From NCBI GenBank assembly GCA_040753675.1, contig JBFMEB010000005.1, positions 2,303 to 66,302 on the forward strand: DNA of 64,000 bases, read 5' to 3'. Positions 22,205 through 55,572 of this stretch are shown piece by piece. The stretch comes from Candidatus Omnitrophota bacterium. GTDB taxonomy: Bacteria; Omnitrophota; Gorgyraeia; JAHJTE01. A model generated the notes under the pieces. The model made no database searches. It was given only the letters and a program-made list of their open reading frames with translations, and was not told where the DNA came from. A program made the translations under genes and the position numbers. Each line of letters begins with the position of its first letter. The first letter of the stretch is position 1.

Positions 22205-23464
22205 ATGAAAAAGAGTTGGAGCTGCAGTGGTTTACACTACTCAATCTTTGCCGCTCCTGATGTTTTAAGGCATTGTTGTAAAAGATTTTTTGTAAATGGC
22301 CAAATGAGAGGGGATGTAGAGATATTTAAGGTTTTTTCTAACTCGGATATAAGCACTAAAAAAATTTTAGAGCATAAGCAAAAACTATATGAAGATATCA
22401 ATAGCGGCAAAGAAACTCCTTGTAGTAGTTGCCCTTGGATAAAATACGATGATTGGGAGCCGTTTAATAAACTTAAAATAAAGCATCTATCTATAGAAAA
22501 TCACACTGTATGCAATCTAAGATGTACCTACTGCAATGAGACATATTACGGAGGTAAAAAATCTAACTATGATATTATGCATTTATATAAGGAGTTAAAA
22601 TTAAAAGATGCTTTTGATGAAAATATTTCTCTGGTGTGGGGTGGAGGCGAACCGCTTTTATTAAATTCTTTTTATGAAATTTTTTCAACATTAACTCAAG
22701 AGCTTGCCCCATCTCGTAATAACATCTTTACAAATGCCATTATATACAGTGATAGTGTTGCAAAGTATCTAAAAGAGGGCAAAGTTACCATTACAACAAG
22801 TATTGATGCAGGATTTAGGAGTACCTACAATAAAATTAGAGGCTCTGATAAATTAATTACAGTACTGCAAAACTTAAAAAAGTATTATCAATGTGATAAA
22901 GATGGAATTACTGTTAAATATTTACTACTACAAGAAAATAGCAATGAAGATGAAGTTTTAGCTTTTGTAGATAAAATAAAAGAATATGGGCTTAGTGGAT
23001 GTACTTTTCAAATAAGCACGAACTATAAAACCGAACGAATTGATGAAAAAATAGCCAGAACATCAATTTTTCTTTTTAATGAGTTAAAAAAATGTGGTAC
23101 TAAACTCATAAATTTCGATGATCATTTAAGGCCAAGGCTTAATTCAATGAGAGATAGTTTGAATATAAAGAGTAGTTACTCAGATAAAGACGTCATAATC
23201 TGGGGGGCGGGTGATTATGCAGAAATGATGTTAAAAGAGAGCAGCTTCTTTAATAATAGAAATATTAGATGCTTCGTAGATAGTAGTAGACAAAAGCATG
23301 GTAAAAAGTTTGGGCCTTACGAGATAAAGCCACCTAAAGCTGTTTTAGAGAATGAAGATACCTACATATTTATAGCCTCGACAAGCTATTACAGGCAAAT
23401 ATATAGCCAAATCTTAGATATGGGGGTTTCACCAAAAAGAATTATTGACGATGTTGTTATCTAA
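22205..23464 (+). CDS. Radical SAM enzyme (non-B12) with N-terminal Cys-rich segment and C-terminal NeuD/PglD-N-like Rossmann domain
   Basis: CNLRCTYCNE (CxxxCxxC), GGGEPLL glycine-rich SAM motif, N-terminal CSGLH...HCCKRFF...CSSCPW, and a C-terminal IIWGAGDYAEMML...RCFVDSSRQKHGKKFGPYEI...YIFIAS resembling the C-terminus of the regulator at 8642. Confidence 0.78.
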   Translation: MKKSWSCSGLHYSIFAAPDVLRHCCKRFFVNGQMRGDVEIFKVFSNSDISTKKILEHKQKLYEDINSGKETPCSSCPWIKYDDWEPFNKLKIKHLSIENHTVCNLRCTYCNETYYGGKKSNYDIMHLYKELKLKDAFDENISLVWGGGEPLLLNSFYEIFSTLTQELAPSRNNIFTNAIIYSDSVAKYLKEGKVTITTSIDAGFRSTYNKIRGSDKLITVLQNLKKYYQCDKDGITVKYLLLQENSNEDEVLAFVDKIKEYGLSGCTFQISTNYKTERIDEKIARTSIFLFNELKKCGTKLINFDDHLRPRLNSMRDSLNIKSSYSDKDVIIWGAGDYAEMMLKESSFFNNRNIRCFVDSSRQKHGKKFGPYEIKPPKAVLENEDTYIFIASTSYYRQIYSQILDMGVSPKRIIDDVVI

Positions 23465-24961
23465 TAAACATTTTTTAATTATAACTCCTTTGAGGACGGC
23501 TTCGTTGCCATTGGAACCTGCCTTGGGTCCTCTAAGCCTTTATTCATTTGCGGTAAAAAATGGTTTTGATGGTGACTTGCTGGATTTTAACACGATAATT
23601 AGCGAAGAGAATATTCGAGACTACGACGATATTGTAAATACTTCACTCCAGCAATGGCTCAATTCTCATCCAGAGGCAAAAATCGTTGGCATAACTGTAC
23701 TCTTTTCTGGGGTTTTTAGAAGAGCACTTAAAATTGCGAAAGTTGTAAAGAAGATACGCAGTGATGTTTCTGTGGTGATCGGCGGCAACCACCCATCTAT
23801 ATTTCCTAAAGAAATAATAGAAAACTGTCCAGAAATAGACTATGTAGTTATTGGGGAAGGTGAAGAACAATTTTTGAATCTGCTCAAGTTGCACTCACAA
23901 GGGTCTGTTTCTAAAGCCAATCTTGATATAGACAATGGCATTGCCTATAGGTCTGACGGTAAAGTTGTCGTAAAAGAGAAAATACGCTATATATACGATT
24001 TGGGCTCACTAGGTATAACAAATTATGTTCAAGTTAACTTTGCAAAATATCATACTCCAGATATGGATACATGGTATAACCCAAAGAAGCACGACATCAT
24101 ATGCGCAATGCCCATAACTACATCTAGAGCATGTCCCTATAGTTGCAGCTTTTGCAGTATGTATAGAGTAATGGGACGCAAATTTCGTTCCAGACCTGTT
24201 GAGGTTGTGCTGGAAGAATTGAAAATTTTGTATTATGAGCACAATATTAGATATTTTAGAATCATGGATGACTGTTCTACTTTTGACAAGAAAAATTCGA
24301 TGAAGCTGTTTCTTGAGATTGCTAAGAGTGATATGGATTTGTCTTTCGAATTTTATAACGGTTTAAGCATCAGAACACTCGACAATGAACTGATCGATAT
24401 CCTTGTGGAAAATGGCTTAGTGCGAGGAAGTCTACCCATTGAAAGCGGCTCGGAATTTCTTAGAAATAAGATTATGAATAAAAATCTTCCTGAAGATAAA
24501 ATTTATGAAGTATATAAATATTTTGAAAAAAACATCCCCACATATGGCTTATTGGATTTTTTTTGATAGGTCTTCCTGAAGAAACTGTTGAGACATTAGA
24601 GGATACTATTAACATGATCAAAAACTTAAAGACTATTTATCCTATTTTTAATATCCTTGTTCCTTTTCCAGGAACAAGGCTTTGGGAACAGTGCGTTAGA
24701 GATAACTTGCTGCTGATGGATATTAAAGATGTCTGGAAATACCCTTTTTGGGCACATCCGACCACTATTGACAGAGCAGAGAAAGATAGAGGCGAATGGT
24801 GCTCTGAAACTTTTGTCAAAAATGAGCAGGCTTTCCTAATCCAGCCTTACAACCTGAGTTTAGAGCAGCTTGCGTATTATTACAAAAAGCTACTCAATCT
24901 AAGAGCTGAATCATGGCAAAGAATTGAGCAACGGAAGCAACTTCAAGCCAAAATTCGTTGA
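23445..24961 (+). pseudogene. B12-binding radical SAM enzyme interrupted by a frameshift in a T8 homopolymer (two ORFs, 23445-24566 and 24563-24961)
   Basis: The first ORF has a B12-binding domain plus the rSAM motif ITTSRACPYSCSFC and ends LLDFF* inside tttttttt (24557-24564). The second ORF continues with IGLPEETVETLEDTINMIK, the FMIGLPxET region conserved in class-B rSAMs. A +1 T would fuse them as ...LLDFFLIGLPEE. Confidence 0.75.
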
Positions 24962-26100: not shown

Positions 26101-26367
26101 ATGAACCCGCTGGAGGAAAGGATATACATATTCATAGTGGATTATCTAAGCAATATTTCGTCTATACCGTATCAAGATAAAAAAAGTATATTACAATACA
26201 GGTATTTGGATGTTGGGCATATTGATTCATTTGGCATTATAAACTTTATTATTACTCTGGAGGATAAGTTTGGTATTTCCTTGACAGCGCAAGATACAGA
26301 GTCGGATGAATTCAGAAGCATCGCAGGTCTCATAAAAACCATTACCAAAAAGCTTGAGAAAAGATGA
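26101..26367 (+). CDS. Acyl carrier protein-like (phosphopantetheine attachment Ser in GHIDSFGIINF)
   Basis: 88 aa, acidic with a four-helix pattern and a DSxx(I/L) motif. Sits next to an acyltransferase-like gene, with the AMP-ligase upstream. Confidence 0.65.
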   Translation: MNPLEERIYIFIVDYLSNISSIPYQDKKSILQYRYLDVGHIDSFGIINFIITLEDKFGISLTAQDTESDEFRSIAGLIKTITKKLEKR

Positions 26368-35935: not shown

Positions 35936-37420
35936 ATGAATGTATTACTTTTGAATATGCCTGTAGTGTTTAATTCCTGGCAAAACTTAGAAATGCCACT
36001 AGGAGTAATGTATATCGCCGCTCAGTTAGAAAGAGAAGGGTATCGGGTTAATATAAAAGATTATGAAGTTGAAAGGTTCGAAAAAAGCGAATTCGAAAAA
36101 CTTATTTCAAGATTTAAGCCAGATGTAATCGGAGTTTCATTCCGTTCTTCATCTTATGCTTCGGCAAAAAAAATTTGCTCTTTGATTAAAAAGATGAATC
36201 CGGATATAAAAATTGTTTTAGGGGGTCAGCATGCAAGCGCTTTTTCACAAGATACGTTGAAGGATATCCTTGCTGATTTTGTGGTTAGAGGAGAAGGCGA
36301 ATATATAATGGCCGAACTATTAGAGGCATTAAGTTTGAGAAAAAATTTTTCTGGAGTTGCTGGTATAACCTACCGCCATAACGGAGAAATCATAGAAAAT
36401 ATCTCTCGCGATAATATTGATAATTTAGACGGACTTGATTTTCCTGCCTGGCACTTAGTTCCCGTTGAGAAATACGTTACCGGATCGATATTAACCAGTA
36501 GAGGCTGTCCTTTTTCCTGTATATATTGCGATAAAGGTATATCTACAAGGAAAGTAAGATTCCGTTCTCCCGAAAATATATATAATGAAATTATTGCTTT
36601 TGAGAAAAAATATAAAAAAGGCAGGATATACTTTGTTGATGATTATTTCTTTTTGAATAAAGAAAGGCTACGGCAGATTTTCGCATTTGTTCTGGGAAAC
36701 GGGGGTTTGAAGATTAGGTGGGTCTGTCAGGCACGAGTCGATGGCGTTAATGATGTTAATTTTCTCCGGCTGGCTAAGAAAGCCGGCTGCGATATGATAA
36801 TCTATGGGGTTGAAACAGGCGATATACAGGAATTGGAATATATAAATAAAAAAGCTACGCTAGAAGATGCTGGCTGTGCGATAAAAATTACTAAAGACGC
36901 AGGTATTAAAACCAGAGTCAATTTTATGATTGGGTTTCCTATTTCTACTATCAAAATGGTAGGGAACTCAATTCGTTTTGCTAAAAAATTGAATGCTAAT
37001 CTTTATAGATTTTTTATAGTTTCTCCGCTACCGAATACGATTTTATGGGACAGGGTAGAAAAGATTTATCCGGATATTTCTCGGGTTGGCTGGGATAAGT
37101 TTGATTTTTATAGCGCAAGTTTTGACACCGCAGAAATCAGTAAAGGAGATTTGGTTAAATACGTTTTAGCCGCTTATATATATGTTTTAAAAAATAGAAC
37201 AATGAGAGAATTAAGTATTGAGTTAGTTTTCCGTTTAGCTAAACTGCTATACCTGTCTATTAGGGTCGGAAAAATGAGGGGAAACTTTTCTAATGCTTTT
37301 CCTGCCTGTGTTAATCTTTTTTTGGAGGGGTGGCAAGTCAGCCGGCATATAGAAAGAGGTAAGAAATTGTCTTATCTAAAAGAAGCTTTTGCCATAGCCA
37401 AGAGGTTTAAGAAGTGTTAA
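35936..37420 (+). CDS. B12-binding (class B) radical SAM enzyme
   Basis: N-terminal B12-binding-like domain (LGVMYIAAQLEREGY). rSAM motif LTSRGCPFSCIYCDKG. FMIGFP motif. 494 aa. Confidence 0.85.
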   Translation: MNVLLLNMPVVFNSWQNLEMPLGVMYIAAQLEREGYRVNIKDYEVERFEKSEFEKLISRFKPDVIGVSFRSSSYASAKKICSLIKKMNPDIKIVLGGQHASAFSQDTLKDILADFVVRGEGEYIMAELLEALSLRKNFSGVAGITYRHNGEIIENISRDNIDNLDGLDFPAWHLVPVEKYVTGSILTSRGCPFSCIYCDKGISTRKVRFRSPENIYNEIIAFEKKYKKGRIYFVDDYFFLNKERLRQIFAFVLGNGGLKIRWVCQARVDGVNDVNFLRLAKKAGCDMIIYGVETGDIQELEYINKKATLEDAGCAIKITKDAGIKTRVNFMIGFPISTIKMVGNSIRFAKKLNANLYRFFIVSPLPNTILWDRVEKIYPDISRVGWDKFDFYSASFDTAEISKGDLVKYVLAAYIYVLKNRTMRELSIELVFRLAKLLYLSIRVGKMRGNFSNAFPACVNLFLEGWQVSRHIERGKKLSYLKEAFAIAKRFKKC

Positions 37421-38670
37421 GTAAACAAGCCAAAGTTTTATATATCACCTACTTGGGAGTTCTTGAGGCAATTCCGCAGTCTCAGGTACTACCGTATCTT
37501 TTTGGGATCTCTAAAGAAGTAGAGATTCATTTGTTGAGCTTCGAGAAGAAGCAGCTGATAAAAAATATGCCAGATGAATTTAGACAAATAAAAGATATAT
37601 TAAATGAGAAAAAAATAGCATGGCATAGATTACCTTATCATAAATATCCTTTGGTGCTGTCTTCATTTTTTGACATTTTTATTGGAAGCATCATTTCTTT
37701 ATTTTTAATTGTCCGTTATAAAATATCTATAGTTCATGCCCGTTCAAACATACCTATTGCTATAGGTTTTATTCTCAAATTATTTTCCGCTCTTACCAGA
37801 GATAGGCTACGCTTCAAACTGCTTTATGACAGGCGAGGCATAATGGCAGAAGACCATACAGAACATAGCGGTTGGAAGCGAGGGGGGCTTCTTTATTGTC
37901 TCGCAGTTTGGTTTGAAAAAAAGGCAATCCACCGCAGCAACGCGATAACTGTTTTGACTGAAAGAATGAATAGGCATTTAAGAGAAACCTTAAACTTAGA
38001 GAAAGATATTTTAATTAAGACTATTCCCTGCTGTATAGACCTTGAGAAATTTAATTATGATAATAACGGAAATGTTAAATTAAGAGACAGTTCTGGTTTA
38101 AGGGGAAAATTTGTATTTGTTTATAGCGGCTCGTTAGGAACTTATAATTTATTAGGGGAAATGTTTGACTTTTTCCGGTTAGCAGTGAGTATGATACCAG
38201 ATGCACATTTTCTTATTCTTACCCAGAATAAAGATATTGTAGTTAACATGTTGGCCAAGAGACAAGATATAGATAGCCAGAGGATAATCCTTAAACATAT
38301 TCCTCCAGATAAAGTCCCAGTTTTTCTCTCTCTGGCGGATGTGGGGTTAATTTTTAGGAGAGACTCTTCTACGGCAATAGCATCTTGTCCTACAAAATTA
38401 GGTGAATATTTGGCTTGCGGCCTGCCGGTTATATCAATATCCAAGATTGGCGATGTGGACGAAATGTTAAAGTCTCATAAAATAGGCGTGATATTAAATA
38501 GTTACGAGGCAAGCGAATATCAAGAGGCAATTGGAAGATTATTATTTTTACTGAAAGAAAAAGATGATTTAAGAAAACGTTGCCGGAATTTTTCGGAGAA
38601 TTATTTTTCTCTGGAACGCGGCATAAATGCCTATTTAGATATATATAGTAATTTGTTAGAAAAGAGATGA
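37414..38670 (+). CDS. Glycosyltransferase family 4-like (GT-B, retaining)
   Basis: C-terminal PTKLGEYLACGLPVIS (the E-x7-E-like region of GT4). 418 aa. Confidence 0.78.
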   Translation: MLSKQAKVLYITYLGVLEAIPQSQVLPYLFGISKEVEIHLLSFEKKQLIKNMPDEFRQIKDILNEKKIAWHRLPYHKYPLVLSSFFDIFIGSIISLFLIVRYKISIVHARSNIPIAIGFILKLFSALTRDRLRFKLLYDRRGIMAEDHTEHSGWKRGGLLYCLAVWFEKKAIHRSNAITVLTERMNRHLRETLNLEKDILIKTIPCCIDLEKFNYDNNGNVKLRDSSGLRGKFVFVYSGSLGTYNLLGEMFDFFRLAVSMIPDAHFLILTQNKDIVVNMLAKRQDIDSQRIILKHIPPDKVPVFLSLADVGLIFRRDSSTAIASCPTKLGEYLACGLPVISISKIGDVDEMLKSHKIGVILNSYEASEYQEAIGRLLFLLKEKDDLRKRCRNFSENYFSLERGINAYLDIYSNLLEKR

Positions 38671-39797
38671 GAATTTGTTTTTTTACTAAATATGAAGTAA
38701 ATCAGGCTAGTAGTCGAGAGCGAATCGGTGCTTATCTTGAATTTCTAAATGACAGAGGCCATACCTATCGCATAATTTCTGTTATCCCTAATAAGTTAAG
38801 GCGACTCGGAATGGGGCAGTCTAATTTCTTTTGGTTATTCTATAAGCTCTATTGCTTTTGGTATAGTGGGATATCTAGATATCTGAAATGTCTCTGTTTA
38901 ATAAGTACTGCTAAAGGATTTAACCTTATAGTCATCCAAAAGGTAAATCTACCTTATATTTTATTGAGATTACTAAGGGCAAGGAATAAGAATATTATTT
39001 TTGATTTTGATGATTTATGTTTTTTTTATCCTGATTCAGAAAGAATTAGCGTCTGCCAGAGGTTAAAATTAGCGTGGAGATTGTGGTATCAAAATCCAAA
39101 TGTTTTACGTTTGTTTAAACATATAATCGCCGGGAATGAATATCTGGCTAAGATATCTAAGGATTCGCAACAGCCAGCAGTCACTGTTATACCTACTGCC
39201 GTTGATTGCAATTTGTATTTTCCTGGCATAAAAAATAATAATTCTCCTTTAATTATCGGTTTTTCAGGCGCAGGGGAAAATCATCTTGAGAATCTAAAGT
39301 TATTAGTAAGGCCTTTAAACACAATAAGTAAGACCTATCCGATTATATTTAAGTTAATAGGAGCAATGCATTCAAAAAAAATAAAATCGATGTTTTGCTC
39401 AGGTGCTTATAAGTTCATATGTATTGACTGGCTAAGTGTTAATGAATTGCCGGAAGCGATAAGATCCTTTGATATTGGCGTTATGCCTCTTGTGGATGAT
39501 AATCAGGCAAAAGGTAAATGTGGCTTTAAGGCATTGTTATATATGGCTAGCGCAGTGGCAACTGTGGCTTCTCCGGTAGGCGTCATTAGAGATATAATAC
39601 AGGATGGAATTAACGGCCTGTGGGCTAAAGGCGAGGATGAATGGATTGAGAAGTTATTGTTACTTATTGAAAATAAAGATTTAAGGCGTAATCTTGCAAT
39701 TGAAGGCAGGAAGACAGTAGAGAGAAGTTATTCTTTGCGGAAGATTTCAGATATATTTATTAATACACTCGAAAGTGTATCTAATGTTAATAATTAA
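38667..39797 (+). CDS. Glycosyltransferase family 4-like (GT-B)
   Basis: C-terminal GFKALLYMASAVATVASPVGVIRDIIQDGINGLW. 376 aa. Confidence 0.72.
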   Translation: MRICFFTKYEVNQASSRERIGAYLEFLNDRGHTYRIISVIPNKLRRLGMGQSNFFWLFYKLYCFWYSGISRYLKCLCLISTAKGFNLIVIQKVNLPYILLRLLRARNKNIIFDFDDLCFFYPDSERISVCQRLKLAWRLWYQNPNVLRLFKHIIAGNEYLAKISKDSQQPAVTVIPTAVDCNLYFPGIKNNNSPLIIGFSGAGENHLENLKLLVRPLNTISKTYPIIFKLIGAMHSKKIKSMFCSGAYKFICIDWLSVNELPEAIRSFDIGVMPLVDDNQAKGKCGFKALLYMASAVATVASPVGVIRDIIQDGINGLWAKGEDEWIEKLLLLIENKDLRRNLAIEGRKTVERSYSLRKISDIFINTLESVSNVNN

Positions 39798-39811
39798 TCT
39801 GATTTTAAGCT

Positions 39812-41224
39812 ATGAAAGTACTATTAATTTATCCTCCAAAATTTAATTTAGTAACACCGGCTTTACCTGAAGTTCAAGAGCGTGGATTAGGTTTTTTTCC
39901 TCCTTTAGGACTTATGTATATAGCCGCTCATCTAAAAAAATATACCCAACATAATGTAGAGATACTCGATGCAGATGTTGAACGGTTAAGTTATGAAGAA
40001 ATTAGAGATGAAGTTAAGATGAGGAAGCCGGACGTGGTTGGAATTACTGCCATGACTTATATGTTATACGATGCTATTTCTGTGGCTAGAGTTGTCAAGG
40101 AGGCAGATAAAAATATTCATATAAATTTAGGCGGACCACATGTAAATATTTACCCCCAAGAAACCATCAATTTTCCTTTTGTTGATTCAGTTACGTTAGG
40201 AGAAGGTGAAATTACCCTTACTGAATTCGTTGATGCTTTATCCCAGAAAGATTCTCTAAAACGAATAAAAGGGATAGTCTACAAAGAAAACGGTAATATA
40301 TTTTATAACGAACCTAGAGAATTGGTTAAAGATATTGATATCTTGCCTTATCCAGACAGAAGAATTATAAATTATAAGAAATATTATAACATAATGAGCA
40401 GAAATCAGATAAGTACAACTATGATTACTTCTCGAGGTTGCTCTAATAGATGCATTTTTTGTGATATACCTCATAAGACAGTGCGATATCGTTCAATTGA
40501 AAACGTTTTAGAAGAAGTAAAGGATTGTTTGAAGTTAGGGGTTAGAGAGATATATTTTTATGATGATACTTTCAATTTAGACAAAAGAAGGGTTATAGAA
40601 TTTTGTAGTAAGATTATTGAAGAAGGGTTTAAATTTTCTTGGACATTTAGAGGTAGGATTAAACCTTTAGATGAGGAGATGCTGGCTAAGTTAAGCAAAG
40701 CAGGCTGCCAGAGAATACAATTTGGCGTAGAGTCTGGAAATGAAGAGATATTAAAACTCATAAGGAAGAATATCACTTTAGAAGAAGTTAAACAAGCCTT
40801 TAGATTAACTAGAAAATTTGGAATCAGTTCATCGGCCTATTTTATGATTGGGTTTCCTAATGAAAGTAAGGAGATGGTTTTAGAGACTATTAAATTTGTC
40901 AATGAATTAAATCCAGACTATGTGGCCTTTTCAGTGACCCAGCCCTTTCCAAATACAGAACTTTATAAAATGGGACTAGAGAGGGGTATTTTTAAGACTG
41001 ATTTTTGGAAGGATTTCGCTTGTAATCCAAAGATTAATTTTGCTCCATTTTTGTGGGAAGAGACTTTGTCACGAGAACAAATGTATGAGTTGCAGAGAGT
41101 TGCGTTAAGGAGTTTCTATCTTAGGCCGAGATATTTAATAAAATCAGTTCTTGATTGTAGGAGTCCAAGAGAATTTTTAAGAAAATTATATGGCGGAATC
41201 AAATTATTTATAGGACTTTGTTAA
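39812..41224 (+). CDS. B12-binding (class B) radical SAM enzyme
   Basis: MKVLLIYPPKFNL..LGLMYIAAHLKK B12-like domain. ITSRGCSNRCIFCDIP. FMIGFPNE. 470 aa. A close paralog of 51271, 52693 and 54145. Confidence 0.85.
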   Translation: MKVLLIYPPKFNLVTPALPEVQERGLGFFPPLGLMYIAAHLKKYTQHNVEILDADVERLSYEEIRDEVKMRKPDVVGITAMTYMLYDAISVARVVKEADKNIHINLGGPHVNIYPQETINFPFVDSVTLGEGEITLTEFVDALSQKDSLKRIKGIVYKENGNIFYNEPRELVKDIDILPYPDRRIINYKKYYNIMSRNQISTTMITSRGCSNRCIFCDIPHKTVRYRSIENVLEEVKDCLKLGVREIYFYDDTFNLDKRRVIEFCSKIIEEGFKFSWTFRGRIKPLDEEMLAKLSKAGCQRIQFGVESGNEEILKLIRKNITLEEVKQAFRLTRKFGISSSAYFMIGFPNESKEMVLETIKFVNELNPDYVAFSVTQPFPNTELYKMGLERGIFKTDFWKDFACNPKINFAPFLWEETLSREQMYELQRVALRSFYLRPRYLIKSVLDCRSPREFLRKLYGGIKLFIGLC

Positions 41225-41257
41225 AAATCACCTATAGCAAGCATTTTTAAAAATACG

Positions 41258-41281
41258 TAACTTATGATTTTACATAAGTTA
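41258..41281 (+). terminator. Possible hairpin (taacttatg-atttta-cataagtta) in the 103-bp gap after the rSAM gene
   Basis: 9-bp perfect stem with a 6-nt loop. The T7 run lies about 20 nt downstream rather than adjacent, so a terminator call is weak. It may instead be an operator. Confidence 0.25.
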
Positions 41282-41327
41282 TGTTATTGTCTACATAAAA
41301 TTTTTTTAAATTTAATAAAGTGTAGTT

Positions 41328-41945
41328 ATGAACAAAAAATTTTTAAATTTTCTGATTAGATTGCAAAAGAAACAGAACGAACTATTTGATTTTATCGTAT
41401 TTTTCAATGATCTGATTATGAAACTAATGTTAAATAGAAGACAAAAAGCACTATTAAAAAATTACTACTCAGAATTTACAATCTTAGAAAAAAAATATTA
41501 CATTTCCATATTAAGATTTAATAGGCTAGGCGAAATATATCAATTTTTTAACCTTTCTTTTAACAACAATTCTGCTAATTTCTTTTTGCCACATAAAACC
41601 GATTTAAAATCTTTGAAGAAAATTTTTAGAAGAATTTCTTATGTCCCCTTAGGAATATTTTATGAGGATACAATTATCGGGTATGCGTTAATTAGATTAT
41701 TTTTCCCTTGCGTTGCTTCCTATTTCATATCTATTGCCAATCAATGGCAAGGCAAGGGCATTGGTACTGCGGCATTAGAAAGGCAGTTAGCCTTAATAAA
41801 TATACTTAATTTCCAGCCCTATTCTATGGTAAACAAGAATAACCTAAAGTCTATAAAAATGCTTAAGAAATTAAACATTGAGTTTGGTAAAGATTTAGGG
41901 GCTTTTTTTGAGGTAAAGGATCGTGTTGGTGCTAATAAGAATTAG
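41328..41945 (+). CDS. GNAT family N-acetyltransferase (start uncertain)
   Basis: C-terminal half IGYALIRLF...IANQWQGKGIGTAALERQLALI with Q/RxxGxG/A acetyl-CoA motif. The N-terminal 80 aa are low-complexity, so the true start may be downstream. Confidence 0.55.
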   Translation: MNKKFLNFLIRLQKKQNELFDFIVFFNDLIMKLMLNRRQKALLKNYYSEFTILEKKYYISILRFNRLGEIYQFFNLSFNNNSANFFLPHKTDLKSLKKIFRRISYVPLGIFYEDTIIGYALIRLFFPCVASYFISIANQWQGKGIGTAALERQLALINILNFQPYSMVNKNNLKSIKMLKKLNIEFGKDLGAFFEVKDRVGANKN

Positions 41946-42956
41946 ATGAATCACGAAAAAAAATTATTGATAAGCGTAGATATGGATACATTTACTTCAT
42001 TATCAAATTATTATGGAGTTAAAGATGTTAAATATATAAAAGACGAAATATATGAAATCGCAATACCACGCATATTAGGATTATTTAAGAGGTTTAATAT
42101 AAAAGCAACCTTTTTTATCTGTAGTAAGGATTTTTCTGACAGAGAAGACGTTTGTTTCTGGATAAAAAAAATAAAAGAAAATGGCCATGAACTAGCAAAT
42201 CATTCTTTAAGCCATAGATATGGCATCTCGCTGTTGTCTTTTAAGCAGATCGAACGGGAGATAATCGGAAATCATAATTTAATAAAAGAATATTTTGATT
42301 GTGATTGTGTCGGATTCAGAGCTCCGGGTTATAACATAAGCACTGCAATTGTTAAGATTTTAGAAAAAAACGGTTACTTATACGACTCTTCATTATTTCC
42401 TACATCACTAACGCTTTTTTACAAGGTTTATCACTGTCTTTTGGTTATAAATAAAGAAAAAAAGGTTTACGATGGAATGGATAATATGTTTTCGTTTTTT
42501 TTGCCTGCACAGCCGTATTTGATAACCAGCGCTAATTATTGTCAGAAGGCTAGAGGCAAAAACGGTTCTTTTATCCTTGAGATACCTATTGCTACAAGCA
42601 GGTTTTTGAAACTCCCTTTTTATTTCAATTTCCATCTGCTTTTCAGTGAAAAGATGCTAAAGATAATTTTTAGCAAGGAAAATCGTCATTGCATAAATTA
42701 TCTGTTACACGCGGTAGATTTTGTTGATTATTATAAAGATAAGATAGACGAGAGATTTGCCTGCGTTGTGAATATAAAACGCCCGCTTGCAGAAAAAATG
42801 GAAAAAATCGACTTAATTATATCCAGTTTATTAAATAATCAATATAAAGTCATATTATTATCATCCTTTGCAAAAGAACTAATTAAATCAGGAAGAAGTT
42901 GCGGGTTGCACGTAGACGATGAAGAGAGCCAAAAATGGAGAATAAAAAAATATTAA
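41946..42956 (+). CDS. Polysaccharide deacetylase (CE4 / NodB homology domain)
   Basis: LLISVDMDT (Asp motif) and HELANHSLSH (His-His metal motif). 336 aa. Confidence 0.78.
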   Translation: MNHEKKLLISVDMDTFTSLSNYYGVKDVKYIKDEIYEIAIPRILGLFKRFNIKATFFICSKDFSDREDVCFWIKKIKENGHELANHSLSHRYGISLLSFKQIEREIIGNHNLIKEYFDCDCVGFRAPGYNISTAIVKILEKNGYLYDSSLFPTSLTLFYKVYHCLLVINKEKKVYDGMDNMFSFFLPAQPYLITSANYCQKARGKNGSFILEIPIATSRFLKLPFYFNFHLLFSEKMLKIIFSKENRHCINYLLHAVDFVDYYKDKIDERFACVVNIKRPLAEKMEKIDLIISSLLNNQYKVILLSSFAKELIKSGRSCGLHVDDEESQKWRIKKY

Positions 42957-43933
42957 TTACAGGTATAGCAGGATTCATCGGTTCTCATTTAGCCGATGAA
43001 TTATTAGCTAGGGGTTATAAGGTTTGCGGTATAGATAATTTATCAATGGGCAAGATTGAAAATATTGAACATAATTTAAGCAACCCTCAATTTGTTTTTA
43101 AGAAAATTGATGTTCGTAATTTAAGTCTACTTAAAGAGACTGCTTCTGATAGTGTTGCTATAGTACATCTAGCGGCTTTTAAAATTCCTCGTTATGGGAA
43201 TTCACTGGATACTTTGTTAATAAATACTAAAGGCACAGAAAATGTATTTGAAGTGGCAAAGGAAATTGGCTGTAAAGTTATCTTTGCTTCCACATCCGAT
43301 GTTTATGGAAAGAATCCTAATTTACCATTCAAAGAAGACAGCAATTTAGTTTATGGCCCTAGCAATATAGCTAGGTGGAGTTATGCAGTATCCAAGTTAT
43401 TTGATGAGCACATGGCATTTGGTTACCAAGAATCTTTTGGTATTCCTGTAGTTATCTTGAGATTCTTTGGTGCTTATGGACCACGACAACATCTTTCTTG
43501 GTGGGGTGGCCCGCAATCTGTTTTTATAAGCGCCATTTTAAAAGATGAAGAAATACAAATTCATGGCGACGGAACTCAAAGAAGGACTTTTATCTACATC
43601 GAGGATTTAATCTATGGGGTAATGGCGGCGATTGAAAGAAAAGATGCGATCGGAGAGATTTTTAATCTTGGCACTACCGAAGAGATAAGCATATTGGATT
43701 TGGCGCGTTTAATAAAAAAACTCTGTGATACCAAGGATGAGATAAGGCTTAAGTTTGTGCCGTATTCAAGCCTTTCAAGTAATTATGAGGACGTCAGAAG
43801 GCGGATTCCTGATATCGCAAAGGCGCAAAGTATTTTAGGTTTTCAGCCCAAGATTAATCTTCGGGAAGGAATTAAGATGACTATTGGGTGGCAACGAAAT
43901 ATATTGGGCAAGATACCAGTAACAGAAAAATAA
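42935..43933 (+). CDS. NAD-dependent epimerase/dehydratase (extended SDR, UDP-glucuronate decarboxylase / UDP-sugar 4-epimerase-like)
   Basis: ILITGIAGFIGSHLADELLARGYKV, catalytic YAVSK. 332 aa. Confidence 0.85.
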   Translation: MENKKILITGIAGFIGSHLADELLARGYKVCGIDNLSMGKIENIEHNLSNPQFVFKKIDVRNLSLLKETASDSVAIVHLAAFKIPRYGNSLDTLLINTKGTENVFEVAKEIGCKVIFASTSDVYGKNPNLPFKEDSNLVYGPSNIARWSYAVSKLFDEHMAFGYQESFGIPVVILRFFGAYGPRQHLSWWGGPQSVFISAILKDEEIQIHGDGTQRRTFIYIEDLIYGVMAAIERKDAIGEIFNLGTTEEISILDLARLIKKLCDTKDEIRLKFVPYSSLSSNYEDVRRRIPDIAKAQSILGFQPKINLREGIKMTIGWQRNILGKIPVTEK

Positions 43934-43951
43934 GAGGAAAGGCAGGTTAAG

Positions 43952-44548
43952 ATGAATGTTTATAATATAGATGGAAAATTAGTAGGGTTTAGGCCATTAG
44001 AAGAAAAGGACTTAAACGGCAATTGGTTTAATTGGTTTAATGATCCAGAGGTTACAAAATATCTCTCTCGAGGAGCTATACCGAATACAAAAGAACAGCA
44101 AAGATTGTTTCTTCAAAATAATATAGCGGATGCTACAAATCAGATTATCTTTGCCGTAGTAGATAAAAAGAGCAGAAGACATATTGGCGTAGCTTCGATA
44201 CGTAATATTGATTGGGTTCATCGCAATGGAGATATAGCTATAATTATTGGAGAAAAAGATTTCTGGCGAGGAGGGTATGCTTTAGAAATATATTATTTAA
44301 TTGTAAAATATAGCTTTGAAACTTTAAATTTACATAGATTAGTTACGGCAACTATAGCAGAAAATAAAATTTCTTTGAAATATTGTGAGATTTTGGGATT
44401 TAAAAATTTTGGAGTTGGCAAAGAAGTATTTTTTAAAAGCGGCCATTATCTTGATTGTGTATATTCAGAGCTTTTAGAGAACGATTGGAAAATGATCCAA
44501 GACGATAGCGAAGAAAAAAATAAACAACTTAAAAAGAGAAAGAAATGA
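43952..44548 (+). CDS. GNAT family N-acetyltransferase (RimL/Acetyltransf_3-like)
   Basis: 198 aa. WFNDPEVTKYL and IGVASIRNIDWVHRNGDIAIIIG pattern. Confidence 0.72.
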   Translation: MNVYNIDGKLVGFRPLEEKDLNGNWFNWFNDPEVTKYLSRGAIPNTKEQQRLFLQNNIADATNQIIFAVVDKKSRRHIGVASIRNIDWVHRNGDIAIIIGEKDFWRGGYALEIYYLIVKYSFETLNLHRLVTATIAENKISLKYCEILGFKNFGVGKEVFFKSGHYLDCVYSELLENDWKMIQDDSEEKNKQLKKRKK

Positions 44549-51270: not shown

Positions 51271-52686
51271 ATGAAAGTACTTTTAATAAATCCACCGGAT
51301 AGGAATATGATAATCTCCGATAATCCATCTTTTATAGATGAAGAGAGAGGGGTTAATCCTCCTTTAGGTCTTTTATATCTGGCTGCTTATTTAAAGCAGA
51401 ACAGTAATCATGAGGTAGAGGTTCTTGATACGCTTGTTGAGAAAATAGGCTATGAAAGATTAGGTGAAATTATCGGCCAGAAATCTCCGGATATCGTAGG
51501 TATAACAACTACGACATTTACTTTAATTGACGTTATGAAAACCGCAAAGATAGTAAAGTCTGTTTCTGATGATATAAAGCTGGTCTTAGGTGGGCCTCAT
51601 CCAAGTATCTACCCACGAGAGTCGGCATCTCTGAAAGAAATTGATTTTGTAATTGCCGGCGAGGGAGAGAGGGTATTTCTCGCATTGATTAATAATATAA
51701 ATAATAAGGCTGTCCTTTCGACCATAAACGGGCTCTTTTTCAAAAATAACGGCAAGGTCATTGGAAATGCGCAGTGTGACTTTATAGACGATTTGGATAA
51801 TCTTCCCTTTCCCGCAAGGAGTCTTACGCCCTACAGAAAATATAACTCTATCATTGCTAGGAGAAATCCTATAACCACAATGTTTACCTCCAGAGGTTGT
51901 CCGTTTAATTGTTCATTTTGTGACAGGCCACACATGGGTAGGCACTTTCGGGCGAGGTCATATAAAGGCGTTGTAGACGAAATGCAGGAATGTGTAGGAA
52001 TGGGCATAAAAGAGATATTTATCTACGATGATACTTTTACCGTAGATAGAAAAAGAGTCTTAGATATATGCGAGGAAATAATCAGGAGGAATTTAGATTT
52101 TAGCTGGGATATAAGGACAAGGGTTGATACAGTAGATGCAGAGATGCTAGTAAAGTTGAAAAAAGCTGGCTGTGAGAGGATTCACTATGGAGTAGAGGCA
52201 GGTACCGATAAGATACTTAAGATTCTAAATAAAGGAACAAGTGTAAAGAAGATAAAGGATAGCTTTAGATTGACTAAAAAAGTAGGAATTTCTACCTTGG
52301 CCTATTTTATGATTGGTTCACCTGAGGAGAAAAAAGAGGATATATTGTCTACAATAAATCTTATGAAAGAATTGAATCCCGATTACGTCCATATTACCAT
52401 AACAACCCCTTTTCCTTCAACAGAACTTTACAGAAAGGCTATGTTAGAAGGTGTTATAAAAAGCGATTATTGGAGAGAGTTTGCTAACAATCCAGATCAG
52501 AAGATATCTTCAATATATTGGGAAAAGGAATTTACAAGAGAAGAGCTGCTCGATTTATTAAGTTTCGCTTATAAGAGTTTCTATGGAAGACCAAGTTTTA
52601 TATTATCTAATCTTATTAAGATAAGATCATTTGTTGATTTTAAAAGAAAAGCCAAGGCAGGTTTTAAGATTCTAAGTGCTAAATAG
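51271..52686 (+). CDS. B12-binding (class B) radical SAM enzyme
   Basis: MKVLLINPP..LGLLYLAAYLKQ. FTSRGCPFNCSFCDRP. FMIGSPEE. 471 aa. Confidence 0.85.
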   Translation: MKVLLINPPDRNMIISDNPSFIDEERGVNPPLGLLYLAAYLKQNSNHEVEVLDTLVEKIGYERLGEIIGQKSPDIVGITTTTFTLIDVMKTAKIVKSVSDDIKLVLGGPHPSIYPRESASLKEIDFVIAGEGERVFLALINNINNKAVLSTINGLFFKNNGKVIGNAQCDFIDDLDNLPFPARSLTPYRKYNSIIARRNPITTMFTSRGCPFNCSFCDRPHMGRHFRARSYKGVVDEMQECVGMGIKEIFIYDDTFTVDRKRVLDICEEIIRRNLDFSWDIRTRVDTVDAEMLVKLKKAGCERIHYGVEAGTDKILKILNKGTSVKKIKDSFRLTKKVGISTLAYFMIGSPEEKKEDILSTINLMKELNPDYVHITITTPFPSTELYRKAMLEGVIKSDYWREFANNPDQKISSIYWEKEFTREELLDLLSFAYKSFYGRPSFILSNLIKIRSFVDFKRKAKAGFKILSAK

Positions 52687-52692
52687 AAAGAT

Positions 52693-54114
52693 ATGAAGAT
52701 ATTATTATTAAACCCCCCCTTTACGGAATACGGCGGCCTGGAAGGCCATGGCGGAAAAGCAGCGCCTTTAAATCTAGCATATTTAGCTGCATTTCTAAGA
52801 GCAAAGCGTCCACAAGATAAGATATCCATACTGGATTGTGAGGGTCTGGAGCTTTCTTATAATGATATAGCAATTGAACTAAAAAGCATACAACCGGATA
52901 TAGTTGGTATTACTGCTCCTACGCCTGCCTATGTCCAGGTGAAGGAGGTTTCAAAGATTATTAAAGAAATTAGTAAAGATATAAAAGTTATATTAGGAGG
53001 GCCTCATCCTACAGCATTTCCATTAGAGACTGTTAAAGAAGAGTTTGTTGATTTTTCAGTATACGGCGAAGGAGAGTTAACTCTTTTGGACTTAGTTAAT
53101 GCCATCGATAAAAAAATGGATTTTAGTTCAGTAAAAGGCATAGCTTTTAAGGATATTTATGGTGATGCTCATTTGACAGAATTGCGCCCATTAATTCAGG
53201 ATTTAGATTCGATTCCCTTCCCAGCAAGAGAACTTTTGCCACTAGAGATATACTTTCCACCTCCAACAAAACGGGTCAGTAATAAAAAAAGTGGAAATAT
53301 GATTACCTCCAGAGGTTGTCCGTATCAGTGTACTTATTGTATGGCGCGAATTATATGGAATAAAAAAGTACGTTATAGAAGCGTTAAAAATGTTGTAGAT
53401 GAGATCGAAGAATGTGTTAAGAATTTTGGAATAGGTGAATTTAATTTTCATGATGAATTATTTACTTTAAAAAAAGAACGCACAATTGAGATTTGTAGGG
53501 AAATAAGACGCAGAAAGTTAGACATAGCCTGGGTATGTATGGTTCGAGTTGATTATGTCTGGGAAGATGTTTTAAGAGAGATGAAATTAGCGGGTTGTAA
53601 GAAAATAATGTTTGGATTTGAATCCGGCTCACAAGAAATTTTAGACCTGATGAAGAAAAATGTTAAAGTAGAACAGGCTTATGAGGCTGTTAAGTTAGTA
53701 AAACGTTGTGGAATTAAGACCGCCGGAAATTTTATGTTTGGCAATATTGGAGAGACTGAAGAGACTATAAGGAAGAGTATCAATCTGGCAAAAAGATTAA
53801 ATACAGATACCGTGGCATTTTTTATTGCCAGTCCATATCCGGGTACTGAATTTTATAATATTGCCAAGGAAAGTGGATATTTTAGGCAAGGCCTAGACTG
53901 GAAAGATTTTACATTAGTCTCTGATAATGCAAGACCACCTTTAGACCTTCCCGGATTGAGTTCTGAAAGAATAGCCTATTGGCAAAAGAAAGCATATAAA
54001 GAATATTATTTTAGGATGGATTACATATTTCAGAAATTATTTGGCATACGTTCAATTATTGATGTTAATAATCTATTTTATGGGGTCAGACTTTTATTTA
54101 AATTGCAAAAATAA
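52693..54114 (+). CDS. B12-binding (class B) radical SAM enzyme
   Basis: MKILLLNPPF..LNLAYLAAFLRA. ITSRGCPYQCTYCMAR. 473 aa. Confidence 0.85.
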   Translation: MKILLLNPPFTEYGGLEGHGGKAAPLNLAYLAAFLRAKRPQDKISILDCEGLELSYNDIAIELKSIQPDIVGITAPTPAYVQVKEVSKIIKEISKDIKVILGGPHPTAFPLETVKEEFVDFSVYGEGELTLLDLVNAIDKKMDFSSVKGIAFKDIYGDAHLTELRPLIQDLDSIPFPARELLPLEIYFPPPTKRVSNKKSGNMITSRGCPYQCTYCMARIIWNKKVRYRSVKNVVDEIEECVKNFGIGEFNFHDELFTLKKERTIEICREIRRRKLDIAWVCMVRVDYVWEDVLREMKLAGCKKIMFGFESGSQEILDLMKKNVKVEQAYEAVKLVKRCGIKTAGNFMFGNIGETEETIRKSINLAKRLNTDTVAFFIASPYPGTEFYNIAKESGYFRQGLDWKDFTLVSDNARPPLDLPGLSSERIAYWQKKAYKEYYFRMDYIFQKLFGIRSIIDVNNLFYGVRLLFKLQK

Positions 54115-54144
54115 TTTTTTAAGATTAAGGCTTATTCCTAAAAA

Positions 54145-55572
54145 ATGAGTTGTCGAATTGCATTTATAGTGCCTCCTTCGCAAGCCATATCATTAAAATT
54201 CGTTTCCTATCAGCAGCCTATAAACATGGCTTATTTAGCTGCTGAGGTTATCAAGGCTGGCCATAATGCCGTGATATGGGATTATGGAGTTGAAGAGTAT
54301 AATTTAGAAGACATTATTGATAGAATTAATGGTTTTAAGCCTCAGATAATAGGTATCCATTGCAAAACTTTTAGCATTATTCAGGGTAATGAACTGGCAA
54401 GGGAAATTAAGAAAAGTTACCCCCAGATATTAATCCTGGTGGGGGGGCCTCATTCTACGGCACTGCCGGAAGAGACATTGAGAGAGTTTGAGAATTTCGA
54501 TGCTGTGGCTATAGGAGAAGGTGAGAAAACAATCGTTGATTTATGTGAACATATAGCAATAGGTAAATCGCTAGAGGGTGTAAATGGTATAGCAATACGC
54601 AACGGGATAAAGATAATACGCACTTCACAGAGAGAATTAATAGCTGATTTAAATGCACTTTCATATCCTGCTAGACAATTGCTACCAGAAAATTTATATA
54701 ATAAACGCCATGCTTCAAGGGGGATTTCTTCTCGTGGACGAAAAGTAACAGAGATCTTTACTTCGCGGGGTTGTCCAGGGCAATGTATTTTTTGTGCGGC
54801 ACGTCTTTCCTATGGAAATTGTGTTCGATTTAGAAGTTTAGATAATGTATTAGGAGAGGTAGACGAATGTATAAATAAATTCTCCTATGATCACATAGTT
54901 ATTCAAGATGATACCTTTACCCTAAATCATGAAAGAGTATACGGGTTGCTTGAAGGATTTCGAAAACTCGGCGTTAAATCATGGAGTTGCGATACAAGGG
55001 TCGATGCTGTAGATAAAGATCTAATTAGAGAGATGGCGCGTTCAAACTGCAAAAAAGTTTCCTTAGGGGTAGAATCGGGAAGCGAGAGAATTTTAAAGCT
55101 GATAAAGAAGAATATTAGTCTACAGCAGGTACGCAACGCGGTTAGATGGGCAAGGTCCTCTGGAATCCAGTTGGTTGAATGCACTTTTATCATTGGTAGT
55201 CATCCCGATGAGACAAATGAAGATGTTTCTCTTACCTGGAAGATGATAAAAGAACTTAGTCCGGATATAATCTCTGTTTCAGTAATAGTTCCCTATCCTG
55301 GTACAGAAGTTTACAGTTTAATGAAAGAGAGAGGCTATATTGATAATCAAGACTGGGAAAACTTTCAATTGATAGGCAGTAAATTAAGCTGGCATACAAA
55401 ATATTTTTCTTCAGAGGAATTGCTTCGGCTGCAGCGGCAATTTATTAATAACTATTATTTTAATTTCAAATATATTATGCGCTCCTTAAGAAGAGCCAAG
55501 AGTATCAAAGATATCAGCTATCTCTTCAAAACAGGACTGGGCGTCTTAGGGTTTCTCTTTAAGAAAGATTGA
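54145..55572 (+). CDS. B12-binding (class B) radical SAM enzyme
   Basis: IAFIVPP..INMAYLAAEVIKAG. FTSRGCPGQCIFCAAR. FIIGSHPDET. 475 aa. Confidence 0.85.
   Translation: MSCRIAFIVPPSQAISLKFVSYQQPINMAYLAAEVIKAGHNAVIWDYGVEEYNLEDIIDRINGFKPQIIGIHCKTFSIIQGNELAREIKKSYPQILILVGGPHSTALPEETLREFENFDAVAIGEGEKTIVDLCEHIAIGKSLEGVNGIAIRNGIKIIRTSQRELIADLNALSYPARQLLPENLYNKRHASRGISSRGRKVTEIFTSRGCPGQCIFCAARLSYGNCVRFRSLDNVLGEVDECINKFSYDHIVIQDDTFTLNHERVYGLLEGFRKLGVKSWSCDTRVDAVDKDLIREMARSNCKKVSLGVESGSERILKLIKKNISLQQVRNAVRWARSSGIQLVECTFIIGSHPDETNEDVSLTWKMIKELSPDIISVSVIVPYPGTEVYSLMKERGYIDNQDWENFQLIGSKLSWHTKYFSSEELLRLQRQFINNYYFNFKYIMRSLRRAKSIKDISYLFKTGLGVLGFLFKKD

Follow-up and report, generated by a model that had tools for sequence, protein, structure and literature searches.

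We analysed a 64-kb stretch of DNA from a Candidatus Omnitrophota metagenome-assembled genome (MAG; GenBank assembly GCA_040753675.1, contig JBFMEB010000005.1, positions 2,303 to 66,302; "the window" below is this whole stretch) and found that three of its genes form a conserved, portable cassette. The first encodes a radical S-adenosylmethionine (rSAM) enzyme with a B12-binding domain (r35936), and the second and third encode glycosyltransferases (GTs) of the GT4 type (gtA and gtB). The rSAM depends on gtA, as an accessory to the step that gtA carries out, and not the other way round. An earlier reading of this DNA made from the sequence alone had described an rSAM, GT4, GT4, rSAM order at 35936-41224, with overlapping or near-abutting frames, and had proposed that both radical enzymes act on the sugars installed by the GT4s or on their nucleotide-sugar donors. 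The order and spacing hold, with open reading frames (ORFs) at these positions and their domains confirmed by Pfam. The functional link was supported for r35936 and gtA, conserved together with gtB in otherwise variable neighbourhoods, and was not supported for the second rSAM (r39812), which belongs to another family.

Genomic contexts came from look-ups of exact proteins and from scanning the GTDB species representatives, and all loci were then searched by tblastn with the proteins of the window. The cassette was defined as a full-length r35936 orthologue (at least 41% identity, including the C-terminal ~110 aa) with a same-strand gtA orthologue directly downstream; the pair in the window spans 35936-38670. 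Fifteen independent loci carried a full-length r35936 orthologue with enough downstream DNA (L001/2, L003, L004/5, L006, L007, L008, L010-L015, L088, L171, L172). All 15 had a full-length gtA orthologue (33-60% identity) downstream on the same strand, and the two genes abutted or overlapped in 14, a single GDSL-lipase gene separating them in L001. The identities of the r35936 and gtA orthologues to the window copies were strongly correlated (r=0.95). Of the 48 window proteins, only r35936, gtA and gtB had positional orthologues across 13 loci (gtB in 12 of the 13), while the other neighbours varied. The five remaining rSAMs of the window also matched all 13 loci, at paralog level only, against whichever B12-type rSAM was present. 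Orthologues of gtB (46-61% identity) directly followed gtA in L001, L003, L006, L007, L008, L010 and L088, and the remaining loci except L014 had a gtB relative of 28-34% identity within a few kb. In L004, though, this relative lies ~11 kb upstream, and the nearest downstream GT has 29% identity.

The co-occurrence check suggested with the sequence-only reading, of rSAM and GT4 pairs across metagenomes, gave a one-sided result. Eighty metagenome loci with gtA relatives (32-40% identity, many from soil), retrieved by gtA alignment, held no r35936 orthologue; among those with enough upstream DNA, an rSAM stood directly upstream of the gtA relative only in L092, and it was of paralog level. We rejected the reverse rule, that gtA implies an rSAM, because gtA relatives in these 80 loci were almost never rSAM-adjacent. 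These loci have the make-up of ordinary polysaccharide clusters (GT2s, an epimerase, a carbamoyltransferase, PMT_2-like proteins), and a gtB-like GT often follows the gtA relative in them; the gtA-gtB-like pair is common outside Omnitrophota. Conversely, gtA was absent from ~68 loci that had paralog-level rSAMs only (31-38% identity and lacking the C-terminal region; Nitrospirota, Elusimicrobiota and various archaea). Because gtA accompanies the rSAM in 15 of 15 loci while its relatives elsewhere do without one, gtA-gtB is a widespread GT pair and the r35936 family an accessory of it, seen so far in Omnitrophota-type MAGs and never without gtA.

A divergent subclade of cassettes (L004, L011, L014, L015, L171, L172; rSAM 41-50% and gtA 33-38% identity) carries a DegT-type aminotransferase downstream of gtA. 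The aminotransferase precedes the gtB-like GT in L004, L011, L171 and L172 and comes after it in L015; L014 lacks a gtB-like GT. This aminotransferase hints that the sugar concerned is an amino sugar. Two other loci of related Omnitrophota (L001 1362-7605, L003 1385-7607) have an Arn-like set (polysaccharide deacetylase, formyltransferase, GT2 and PMT_2); upstream of the cassette they also encode an rSAM-SPASM protein and a 673-aa protein that joins FrhB/FdhB-type F420-hydrogenase beta-subunit domains to a class-I methyltransferase.

r35936 itself has the class-B architecture, that is, a B12-binding domain and an rSAM core with a CxxxCxxC motif (SRGCPFSCIYC). The three cluster cysteines (C191, C195, C198), a GG-H motif (G96-G97-H99) and five C-terminal residues (W386, Y409, Y414, E425, N460) are invariant in 38 orthologues. 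Its C-terminal ~110 aa are helical, family-specific and missing from the other paralogs of the window. The AlphaFold2 model (pLDDT 89.8) shows a Rossmann domain, a partial TIM barrel and a five-helix C-terminal bundle, and has the class-B fold: the top PDB folds found by Foldseek were OxsB, MgmA, TsrM, CysS, TokK and AprD4, the first five with E values of 1e-23 to 1e-18 and TM-scores of 0.61-0.76. Methylases, a ring-contracting enzyme and a dehydratase matched about equally, so that the PDB searches confirm the class and not the chemistry. The family is large, with full-length orthologues at 41-66% identity, and its named members are all from Omnitrophota. Some of its proteins (P0088, P0094 at L004 10001-12310, and P0117) are ~700-770 aa long and end in a class-I SAM methyltransferase domain; in L004, a second r35936-type paralog lies directly upstream of the fused P0094. 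More distant is a very uniform set of B12-type rSAMs from Nitrospirota/Thermodesulfovibrionia MAGs (L022-L055; 34-36% identity to r35936 over residues 1-372), which looks like a separate, possibly single-copy conserved family.

The partner enzymes are labelled GT4 on the basis of Pfam for both and of the predicted fold for gtA, a label that is distinct from a formal CAZy assignment. gtA scored just below the cut-off for Glyco_transf_4 (25.9 bits). Its AlphaFold2 model (pLDDT 93.1) has a GT-B fold, with the retaining GT4 enzymes MshA, BshA, GlgM, HepE, PimB', PglA and WaaG as top matches (E 1e-18 to 1e-13, TM-scores up to 0.81 against solved GT4 enzymes). In the EX7E motif of gtA, only the second glutamate (E331, in GEYLACGLPV) is invariant across 36 homologues, and the residue eight positions upstream is alanine in the window. 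No NCBIfam equivalog model exceeded its cut-off for either GT.

We next consider r39812 (cluster motif SRGCSNRCIFC), which also has the class-B architecture. An orthologue follows the GT pair in L088 only, a 5.7-kb contig of a close relative, where the four genes stand in the same order as in the window (55, 52, 46 and 72% identity). There, an orthologue of the epimerase 42935 (77% identity, 4882-5739) comes directly after the r39812 orthologue and overlaps its gene end, with no GNAT or deacetylase gene between; in the window, a GNAT and a deacetylase (41946) separate the two genes. The other 14 loci have an epimerase, another GT, an aminotransferase or a methyltransferase in the position after the GT pair. 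The r39812 family comprises more than 120 clusters at 46-52% identity, including Chloroflexota and Lokiarchaeia proteins, and only one at 72%. Its closest solved sequence is AprD4 (6fd2, 1.3e-27), aligned over the rSAM core only.

Outside Omnitrophota, the family to which 39812 and 51271 belong has a GT partner of its own. In L086, L087 and L170 the gene directly upstream of the rSAM encodes a GT2 of ~290 aa, and L169 has such a GT2 one gene away. The four GT2s are orthologues of one another (40-49% identity), and their genes overlap the rSAM gene by 4 nt in L086 and L087. The surroundings of these pairs include genes for PMT_2 GT-C proteins, for a polysaccharide deacetylase and for a membrane protein of the LPG_synthase_TM type. 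Since r39812 follows the GT pair in L088 alone and its family is coupled to another GT elsewhere, r39812 is not a conserved part of the cassette, and the sandwich of two GT4s between two rSAMs is a juxtaposition with a member of another rSAM family. The arrangement seen outside Omnitrophota looks like a widespread module of GT2, B12-type rSAM and GT-C that recalls the logic of ArnC, ArnD and ArnT, the lipid A 4-amino-4-deoxy-arabinose (Ara4N) pathway of lipid-linked sugar modification. What is alike is the layout: first a small GT2 whose size and position resemble those of a polyprenyl-phosphate glycosyltransferase, next a tailoring enzyme, and in the vicinity a PMT_2 GT-C and a membrane protein of flippase-like type. 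The tailoring enzyme differs, being a radical SAM protein instead of a deformylase, and the analogy is one of gene architecture alone. Given such a GT2 partner and the GT-C and flippase-like genes around it, the family may act on a polyprenyl-phosphate-linked monosaccharide. The module is not intact in the window, since a search there for an orthologous GT2 found only generic GT2s of 24-37% identity, although a related LPG_synthase_TM protein (58949, 31-37% identity) is retained.

The sequence-only reading had counted six class-B paralogs in the locus, including a frameshifted copy, and this count was confirmed: six ORFs (23445, 35936, 39812, 51271, 52693 and 54145) have both the B12-binding and Radical_SAM domains, and all exceed the PF02310 gathering score of 32.1 (91.1 bits for 35936, 81.8 for 39812, then 82, 68, 73.2 and 56.5). 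It was also right that r39812 most resembles the tandem trio at 51271-55572, its closest paralog in the window being 51271 (42.5% identity over the full length). Its conclusion that the paralogs arose by lineage-specific expansion did not survive. The five intact copies share 30-43% pairwise identity, the trio 33-36%, and 23445 shares 23-32% with the intact copies, and closer relatives lie outside the window, often in another phylum (Table 1). A neighbour-joining tree of 145 B12-type rSAM sequences taken from the retrieved loci paired no two paralogs of the window as sisters and gave each member of the trio a sister from outside the window. Only 39812 and 51271 shared a small clade, of seven leaves, which also holds proteins from other phyla. 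Since no two paralogs are sisters, recent expansion is unsupported; the paralogs represent several old subfamilies recruited into one glycan locus as a mosaic. Related Omnitrophota glycan loci contain 1-4 B12-type rSAM genes per ~20 kb. The result corrects a tempting misreading, as many paralogs in one locus here reflect recruitment and not recent duplication.

That reading had named as its own refutation a grouping of the paralogs with housekeeping enzymes such as MiaB or RimO in place of a locus-specific clade. The tree has no locus-specific clade, and the paralogs are not MiaB- or RimO-like either. We rejected that identity because NCBIfam scores reached at most 55 bits against cut-offs of 251-357, compared with 154-236 bits for models of the BchE, HpnJ and PhpK type, and Pfam gave no UPF0004 or TRAM hit. 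The MiaB and RimO structures, which have a radical SAM core and a Rossmann-like N-terminal domain in common with the window rSAMs, matched the r35936 model at E 1e-14 to 1e-10 and ranked below all class-B structures, OxsB, MgmA, TsrM, CysS and TokK included.

These observations make it probable, in our judgement, that the cassette of r35936, its dedicated retaining GT4 gtA and gtB works inside a surface-glycan supercluster and that r35936 tailors a sugar by radical chemistry. In such a pathway, gtA and gtB would add two sugars to a lipid-linked repeat unit at the cytoplasmic face. r35936 would use 5'-deoxyadenosyl-radical chemistry, with methylcobalamin the most probable methyl donor, and its target would be an unactivated carbon in the sugar with which gtA deals, whether that sugar is still a nucleotide-sugar donor about to be transferred or a residue that has just been attached. 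The most likely outcome would be C-methylation, because methylation is the most represented activity of B12-type rSAMs (PMC12931638), because GenK and GenD1 offer a precedent (PMC5461906) and because some family members are fused to a class-I methyltransferase, which serves as a Rosetta-stone hint. The neighbouring class-I methyltransferase, 35333, would be the source of a conventional methyl group on O or N, and r39812 and the trio at 51271-55572, as separately recruited and older cross-phylum subfamilies, would carry out further, independent tailoring steps.

Several points weigh against this interpretation. The substrate, the regiochemistry and even the use of cobalamin are read from sequence, and a Pfam match to the B12-binding domain does not prove cobalamin use. 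AprD4, according to the paper on its structure (6FD2), was reportedly first classed as B12-type and does not use cobalamin. The nearest solved architectures to r35936 include both a methylase (MgmA, TMt 0.76) and that dehydratase (AprD4, TMt 0.71). No window paralog reached the NCBIfam equivalog cut-off for BchE, HpnJ, PhpK, HpnR, BzaD, MgmA/MJ_0865, AprD4, ApyD or the ladderane rSAM, so that the reaction type cannot be transferred by homology. The best scores of the window rSAMs were 162-230 bits for BchE (cut-off 481), 154-236 for HpnJ (577.6), 109-171 for PhpK (600) and 54-126 for AprD4 (500); no model reached its cut-off for r35936, the best being BchE at 178 bits. Gene order, with the rSAM before gtA, is silent on whether the enzyme acts before or after transfer. 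The locus sample was itself retrieved via the rSAM, and several MAG labels are coarse, three of them reading "uncultured Planctomycetia". Finally, the methyltransferase 35333 is not conserved in the other r35936 loci compared. We had tried it as a counterpart of the methyltransferase domain in the fused homologues and rejected it (generic 25% identity, E ~1e-4 to 4e-5); because the similarity is generic and the gene is absent from other loci, it is excluded from the cassette.

Known systems offer partial parallels. GenK and GenD1 are class-B rSAMs that methylate unactivated sugar carbons (C6' and C4'') on an already glycosylated intermediate, and they are encoded among glycosyltransferases, aminotransferases and SAM N-methyltransferases (PMC5461906). 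They differ in belonging to actinomycete aminoglycoside pathways for which no obligate rSAM-GT gene pair has been described; we compared them by published description. The window rSAMs are compact (470-494 aa), lie within a cell-surface polysaccharide locus and match no curated equivalog model. In the hopanoid side-chain pathway, a GT (HpnI) and then a deacetylase (HpnK) act first, and the amino sugar installed on the lipid-linked intermediate is next the substrate of HpnJ, an rSAM with a B12 domain (PMC13459092). For each of the five main paralogs, HpnJ was one of the two NCBIfam models that matched best, and 39812 has a GT, a GNAT and a polysaccharide deacetylase on its flanks. However, the scores fall far under the HpnJ cut-off, the window has no hopanoid genes, the GT partner is a GT4 (a ~290-aa GT2 for the 39812 family), and the ring contraction proposed for HpnJ is itself unproven. 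AprD4, the radical SAM diol dehydratase that works with the reductase AprD3, is the closest solved sequence to r39812 and a close fold to r35936, and it acts on the sugar ring of a pseudodisaccharide; yet the rSAM core alone aligns, and a reductase partner is not consistently adjacent. Its N-terminal domain is also reported not to bind cobalamin, whereas the Pfam B12-binding model matches the window rSAMs strongly. In the literature we found no characterised B12-type rSAM in surface-polysaccharide, O-antigen or capsule assembly and hence no direct precedent, and a 2026 review of the class makes no mention of polysaccharides or glycans (PMC12931638). An Omnitrophota preprint reports hypervariable polysaccharide cassettes and giant proteins in which radical SAM and GT1 domains co-occur (bioRxiv 10.64898/2026.06.07.730766).

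We weighed three other explanations. The rSAMs might not be methyltransferases and could instead catalyse an AprD4-like dehydration of a 1,2-diol to a deoxy sugar with an NAD(P)H reductase, a ring contraction as in HpnJ or OxsB, or an epimerisation. The closeness of r39812 to AprD4, which extends to an NCBIfam match of 123 bits, speaks for this, as do the epimerase/dehydratase of the short-chain dehydrogenase/reductase (SDR) type directly after the r39812 orthologue in L088, the GFO/IDH/MocA oxidoreductase directly before 51271, which echoes AprD4/AprD3 (PMC5461906), the HpnJ matches, and the deacetylase at 41946, as in HpnI/K/J (PMC13459092). The AprD4 alignments are limited to the rSAM core, however; over the N-terminal domains it is the cobalamin-binding domains of OxsB, TokK and CysS that align, and the Pfam B12-binding model gives 82-91 bits there. 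No reductase is adjacent to the rSAM in L086, L087, L169 or L170, and the predominance of methylation in the class argues in the same direction, so we regard a non-methylating chemistry as unlikely, though as the main rival.

The four genes could also be one unit, both flanking rSAMs acting on sugars installed by the GT4s and the six paralogs descending from a lineage-specific expansion. Tight packing, the recurrence of the order in L088 and the fact that 39812 and 51271 are each other's closest paralogs in the window fit this idea; set against them are the 14 of 15 loci without a 39812 orthologue after the GT pair and a 39812 family that spans several phyla and is GT2-coupled elsewhere. Its expansion component is largely refuted, every window paralog being closer to a relative outside the window and none being sisters, and we judge the whole improbable. 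Adjacency without function is more improbable by far. Here rSAM and gtA would hitch-hike in hypervariable polysaccharide islands, of the kind reported for Omnitrophota (bioRxiv 10.64898/2026.06.07.730766), and their substrates would be unrelated, a lipid or a peptide for instance, as partial NCBIfam matches to lipid and ribosomally synthesized peptide rSAM models (rSAM_ladder_B12, ApyD) might suggest. But the pair is kept in every one of the 15 loci while other neighbours change, its genes overlap or abut, the identities of the two proteins co-vary, and all contexts are glycan clusters in which no precursor-peptide or lipid-synthesis genes were seen.

Radical tailoring of a gtA-handled sugar remains our preferred interpretation, and the question at stake is whether bacteria of anoxic habitats use radical chemistry to decorate their surface glycans. 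Characterised B12-type rSAMs act on antibiotics, cofactors, lipids, peptides and proteins. What is new is that an enzyme class already known stands in a role not yet characterised and has an obligate GT partner, defined here for the first time; the function we infer. The strictly conserved rSAM-GT4 pair offers a concrete and testable entry, with two proteins and a defined partner step. It bears on the surface chemistry of the ultra-small, host-associated Omnitrophota, on community cobalamin demand and on the toolbox for C-methylated or deoxygenated sugars. As a tentative generalisation, for which we claim less than even confidence, Omnitrophota and, by way of the GT2-coupled 470-aa family, other anaerobic uncultured phyla (Chloroflexota and Asgard archaea among them) may routinely pair cobalamin-dependent rSAMs with specific glycosyltransferases, installing C-methyl or other radical-derived modifications on unactivated carbons of lipid-linked surface glycans, with up to six or seven steps per locus and one of them switched on and off via an A7 tract.

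Table 1. Features of the window and of compared loci, with the closest relatives of the five intact class-B rSAMs (percentages are identities).
Feature	Position	Strand	Basis	Best relative outside window	Best in window
rSAM protein, not class B (seventh)	22205-23464	+	Pfam Radical_SAM 2.4e-14, C2185-like_N 1.8e-5; no B12 domain		
Sixth B12-domain rSAM, distinct lineage	23445-24961	+	Pfam hits on 373-aa ORF; frameshifted		
624-aa protein with C-terminal putative nonulosonic-acid or surface-carbohydrate transferase domain	33481-35355	+			
Class-I SAM methyltransferase	35333-35932	+	Pfam Methyltransf_23/11; 3-nt gap to r35936; likely true start ATG 35357		
r35936, B12-binding-domain rSAM enzyme, 494 aa	35936-37420	+	Pfam B12-binding 6e-26 (91.1 bits), Radical_SAM 2.8e-20 (73.6 bits)	66% (Omnitrophota)	36%
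gtA, GT4-like retaining GT-B glycosyltransferase, 418 aa	37414-38670	+	Pfam Glycos_transf_1 36.8 bits (cut-off 26.4), Glyco_trans_1_4 30.8 bits		
gtB, second GT4-like glycosyltransferase, 376 aa	38667-39797	+	Pfam Glyco_trans_1_4 50.1 bits, Glycos_transf_1 38 bits		
r39812, B12-binding-domain rSAM enzyme, 470 aa	39812-41224	+	Pfam Radical_SAM 1.9e-31 (109.9 bits), B12-binding 4.7e-23 (81.8 bits)	72% (L088), ~50% (Chloroflexota, Lokiarchaeia, many others)	42.5%
AT-rich perfect 12-bp hairpin (ACGTAACTTATG...CATAAGTTATGT)	41255-41284	+	Terminator-like scan; inside 103-nt gap after r39812 stop		
NAD-dependent epimerase/dehydratase	42935-43933	+	Pfam GDP_Man_Dehyd, Epimerase		
B12-domain rSAM of tandem trio (each a different old subfamily)	51271-52686	+	Pfam	57% (L087, Chloroflexota protein)	42.5%
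B12-domain rSAM of tandem trio	52693-54114	+	Pfam	49% (L008) and 46.5%; Omnitrophota, Victivallales	36%
B12-domain rSAM of tandem trio	54145-55572	+	Pfam	41.5% (L061)	35%
GT2 + B12-type rSAM	L086 7144-9413				
GT2 + B12-type rSAM	L087 7138-9413				
GT2 + B12-type rSAM	L170 5133-7416				
GT2 + B12-type rSAM	L169 4177-7413				

The window is almost wholly coding, on the plus strand, with a G+C content of 31-40%. An exact-sequence look-up of the r35936 protein gave no record, but homologue searches showed r35936 and r39812 to be 100% identical to proteins of a Candidatus Omnitrophota MAG at NCBI. Positions 21 to ~7043 hold housekeeping genes (an ATP-synthase-ab-type NTPase, RF-1, PrmC, an EPSP-synthase-fold enzyme and trpG/D/C-like genes), and from 7056 to its end the window is one unbroken glycan-biosynthesis supercluster of ~57 kb, almost single-stranded in orientation. 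Sugar activation and nonulosonic-acid synthesis are represented by ManC, two DegT aminotransferases, a PseB/Polysacc_synt_2-type dehydratase, a hexapeptide acyltransferase, a cytidylyltransferase-aminotransferase (CMP-transferase) fusion and NeuB. Tailoring genes comprise GNATs, class-I methyltransferases, an AMP-binding ligase, an FkbH-like protein, SDRs, GFO/IDH/MocA oxidoreductases and polysaccharide deacetylases, and those for assembly and export comprise a Wzx-type flippase, four GT2s, two GT4s, a PMT_2 GT-C, DUF6044, an LPG_synthase_TM protein and a UDP-GlcNAc 2-epimerase. The product is best explained, with fair probability, as a polysaccharide or glycoconjugate containing nonulosonic acid.

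Within the supercluster, a tightly packed run extends from the 624-aa gene to the end of r39812 (33481-41224) and is probably best understood as operon-like. The frames of r35936 and gtA overlap by 7 nt and those of gtA and gtB by 4 nt (ATGA), and 14 nt separate gtB from r39812. The overlapping starts are credible because the N-termini match the consensus sequences of their homologues. On the minus strand of 35936-41224, the sole ORF of at least 80 aa encodes 100 aa within gtA (38142-38444) and was judged spurious. The first real gap in the run, of 103 nt, follows 41224. The hairpin inside it is the one sizeable structure in the intergenic DNA from 33481 to 44548 and may be where a sub-operon ends, though this is weak evidence, because the terminator-like scan as a whole stood at chance level (8 sites against 9.1 expected); the promoter-like scan did so too (61 against 64.8).

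Two further radical SAM genes lie upstream of this run. The frameshift in 23445 is a 1-nt indel in an A7 tract (24526-24532), and one added A gives a 505-aa ORF that brings back the missing C-terminal half of the rSAM and keeps the FFLIGLPEET segment intact. The indel could be an assembly error or slipped-strand phase variation of a glycan-tailoring gene. The best NCBIfam model for 23445 was Sden_1168 (142 bits against a cut-off of 575). Its ORF is overlapped by 20 nt by that of the seventh radical SAM protein, 22205, which has a MoaA/SPASM-like core and a C-terminal PglD_N/C2185-like segment, matched MoaA and SPASM-type NCBIfam models only, and weakly, and had no BLASTP hit to the six class-B copies.

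The 624-aa protein encoded at 33481 matched the NCBIfam models for the BFO_1060 family glycosyltransferase domain (1.8e-27) and "surface carbohydrate biosynthesis protein" (9.2e-25), both under cut-off, and Pfam Epimerase_2 and Capsule_synth in the C-terminal half. The NCBIfam matches fall in the C-terminal ~250 aa only, and the N-terminal ~370 aa had no family hit. Inside the nonulosonic-acid module, beside NeuB, lie an aminoglycoside 3-N-acetyltransferase-like domain fused to DUF4910/DUF2172 (M28-peptidase-like; 26364-28217) and a second DUF4910/DUF2172 protein with a C-terminal winged-helix domain (30649-32013).

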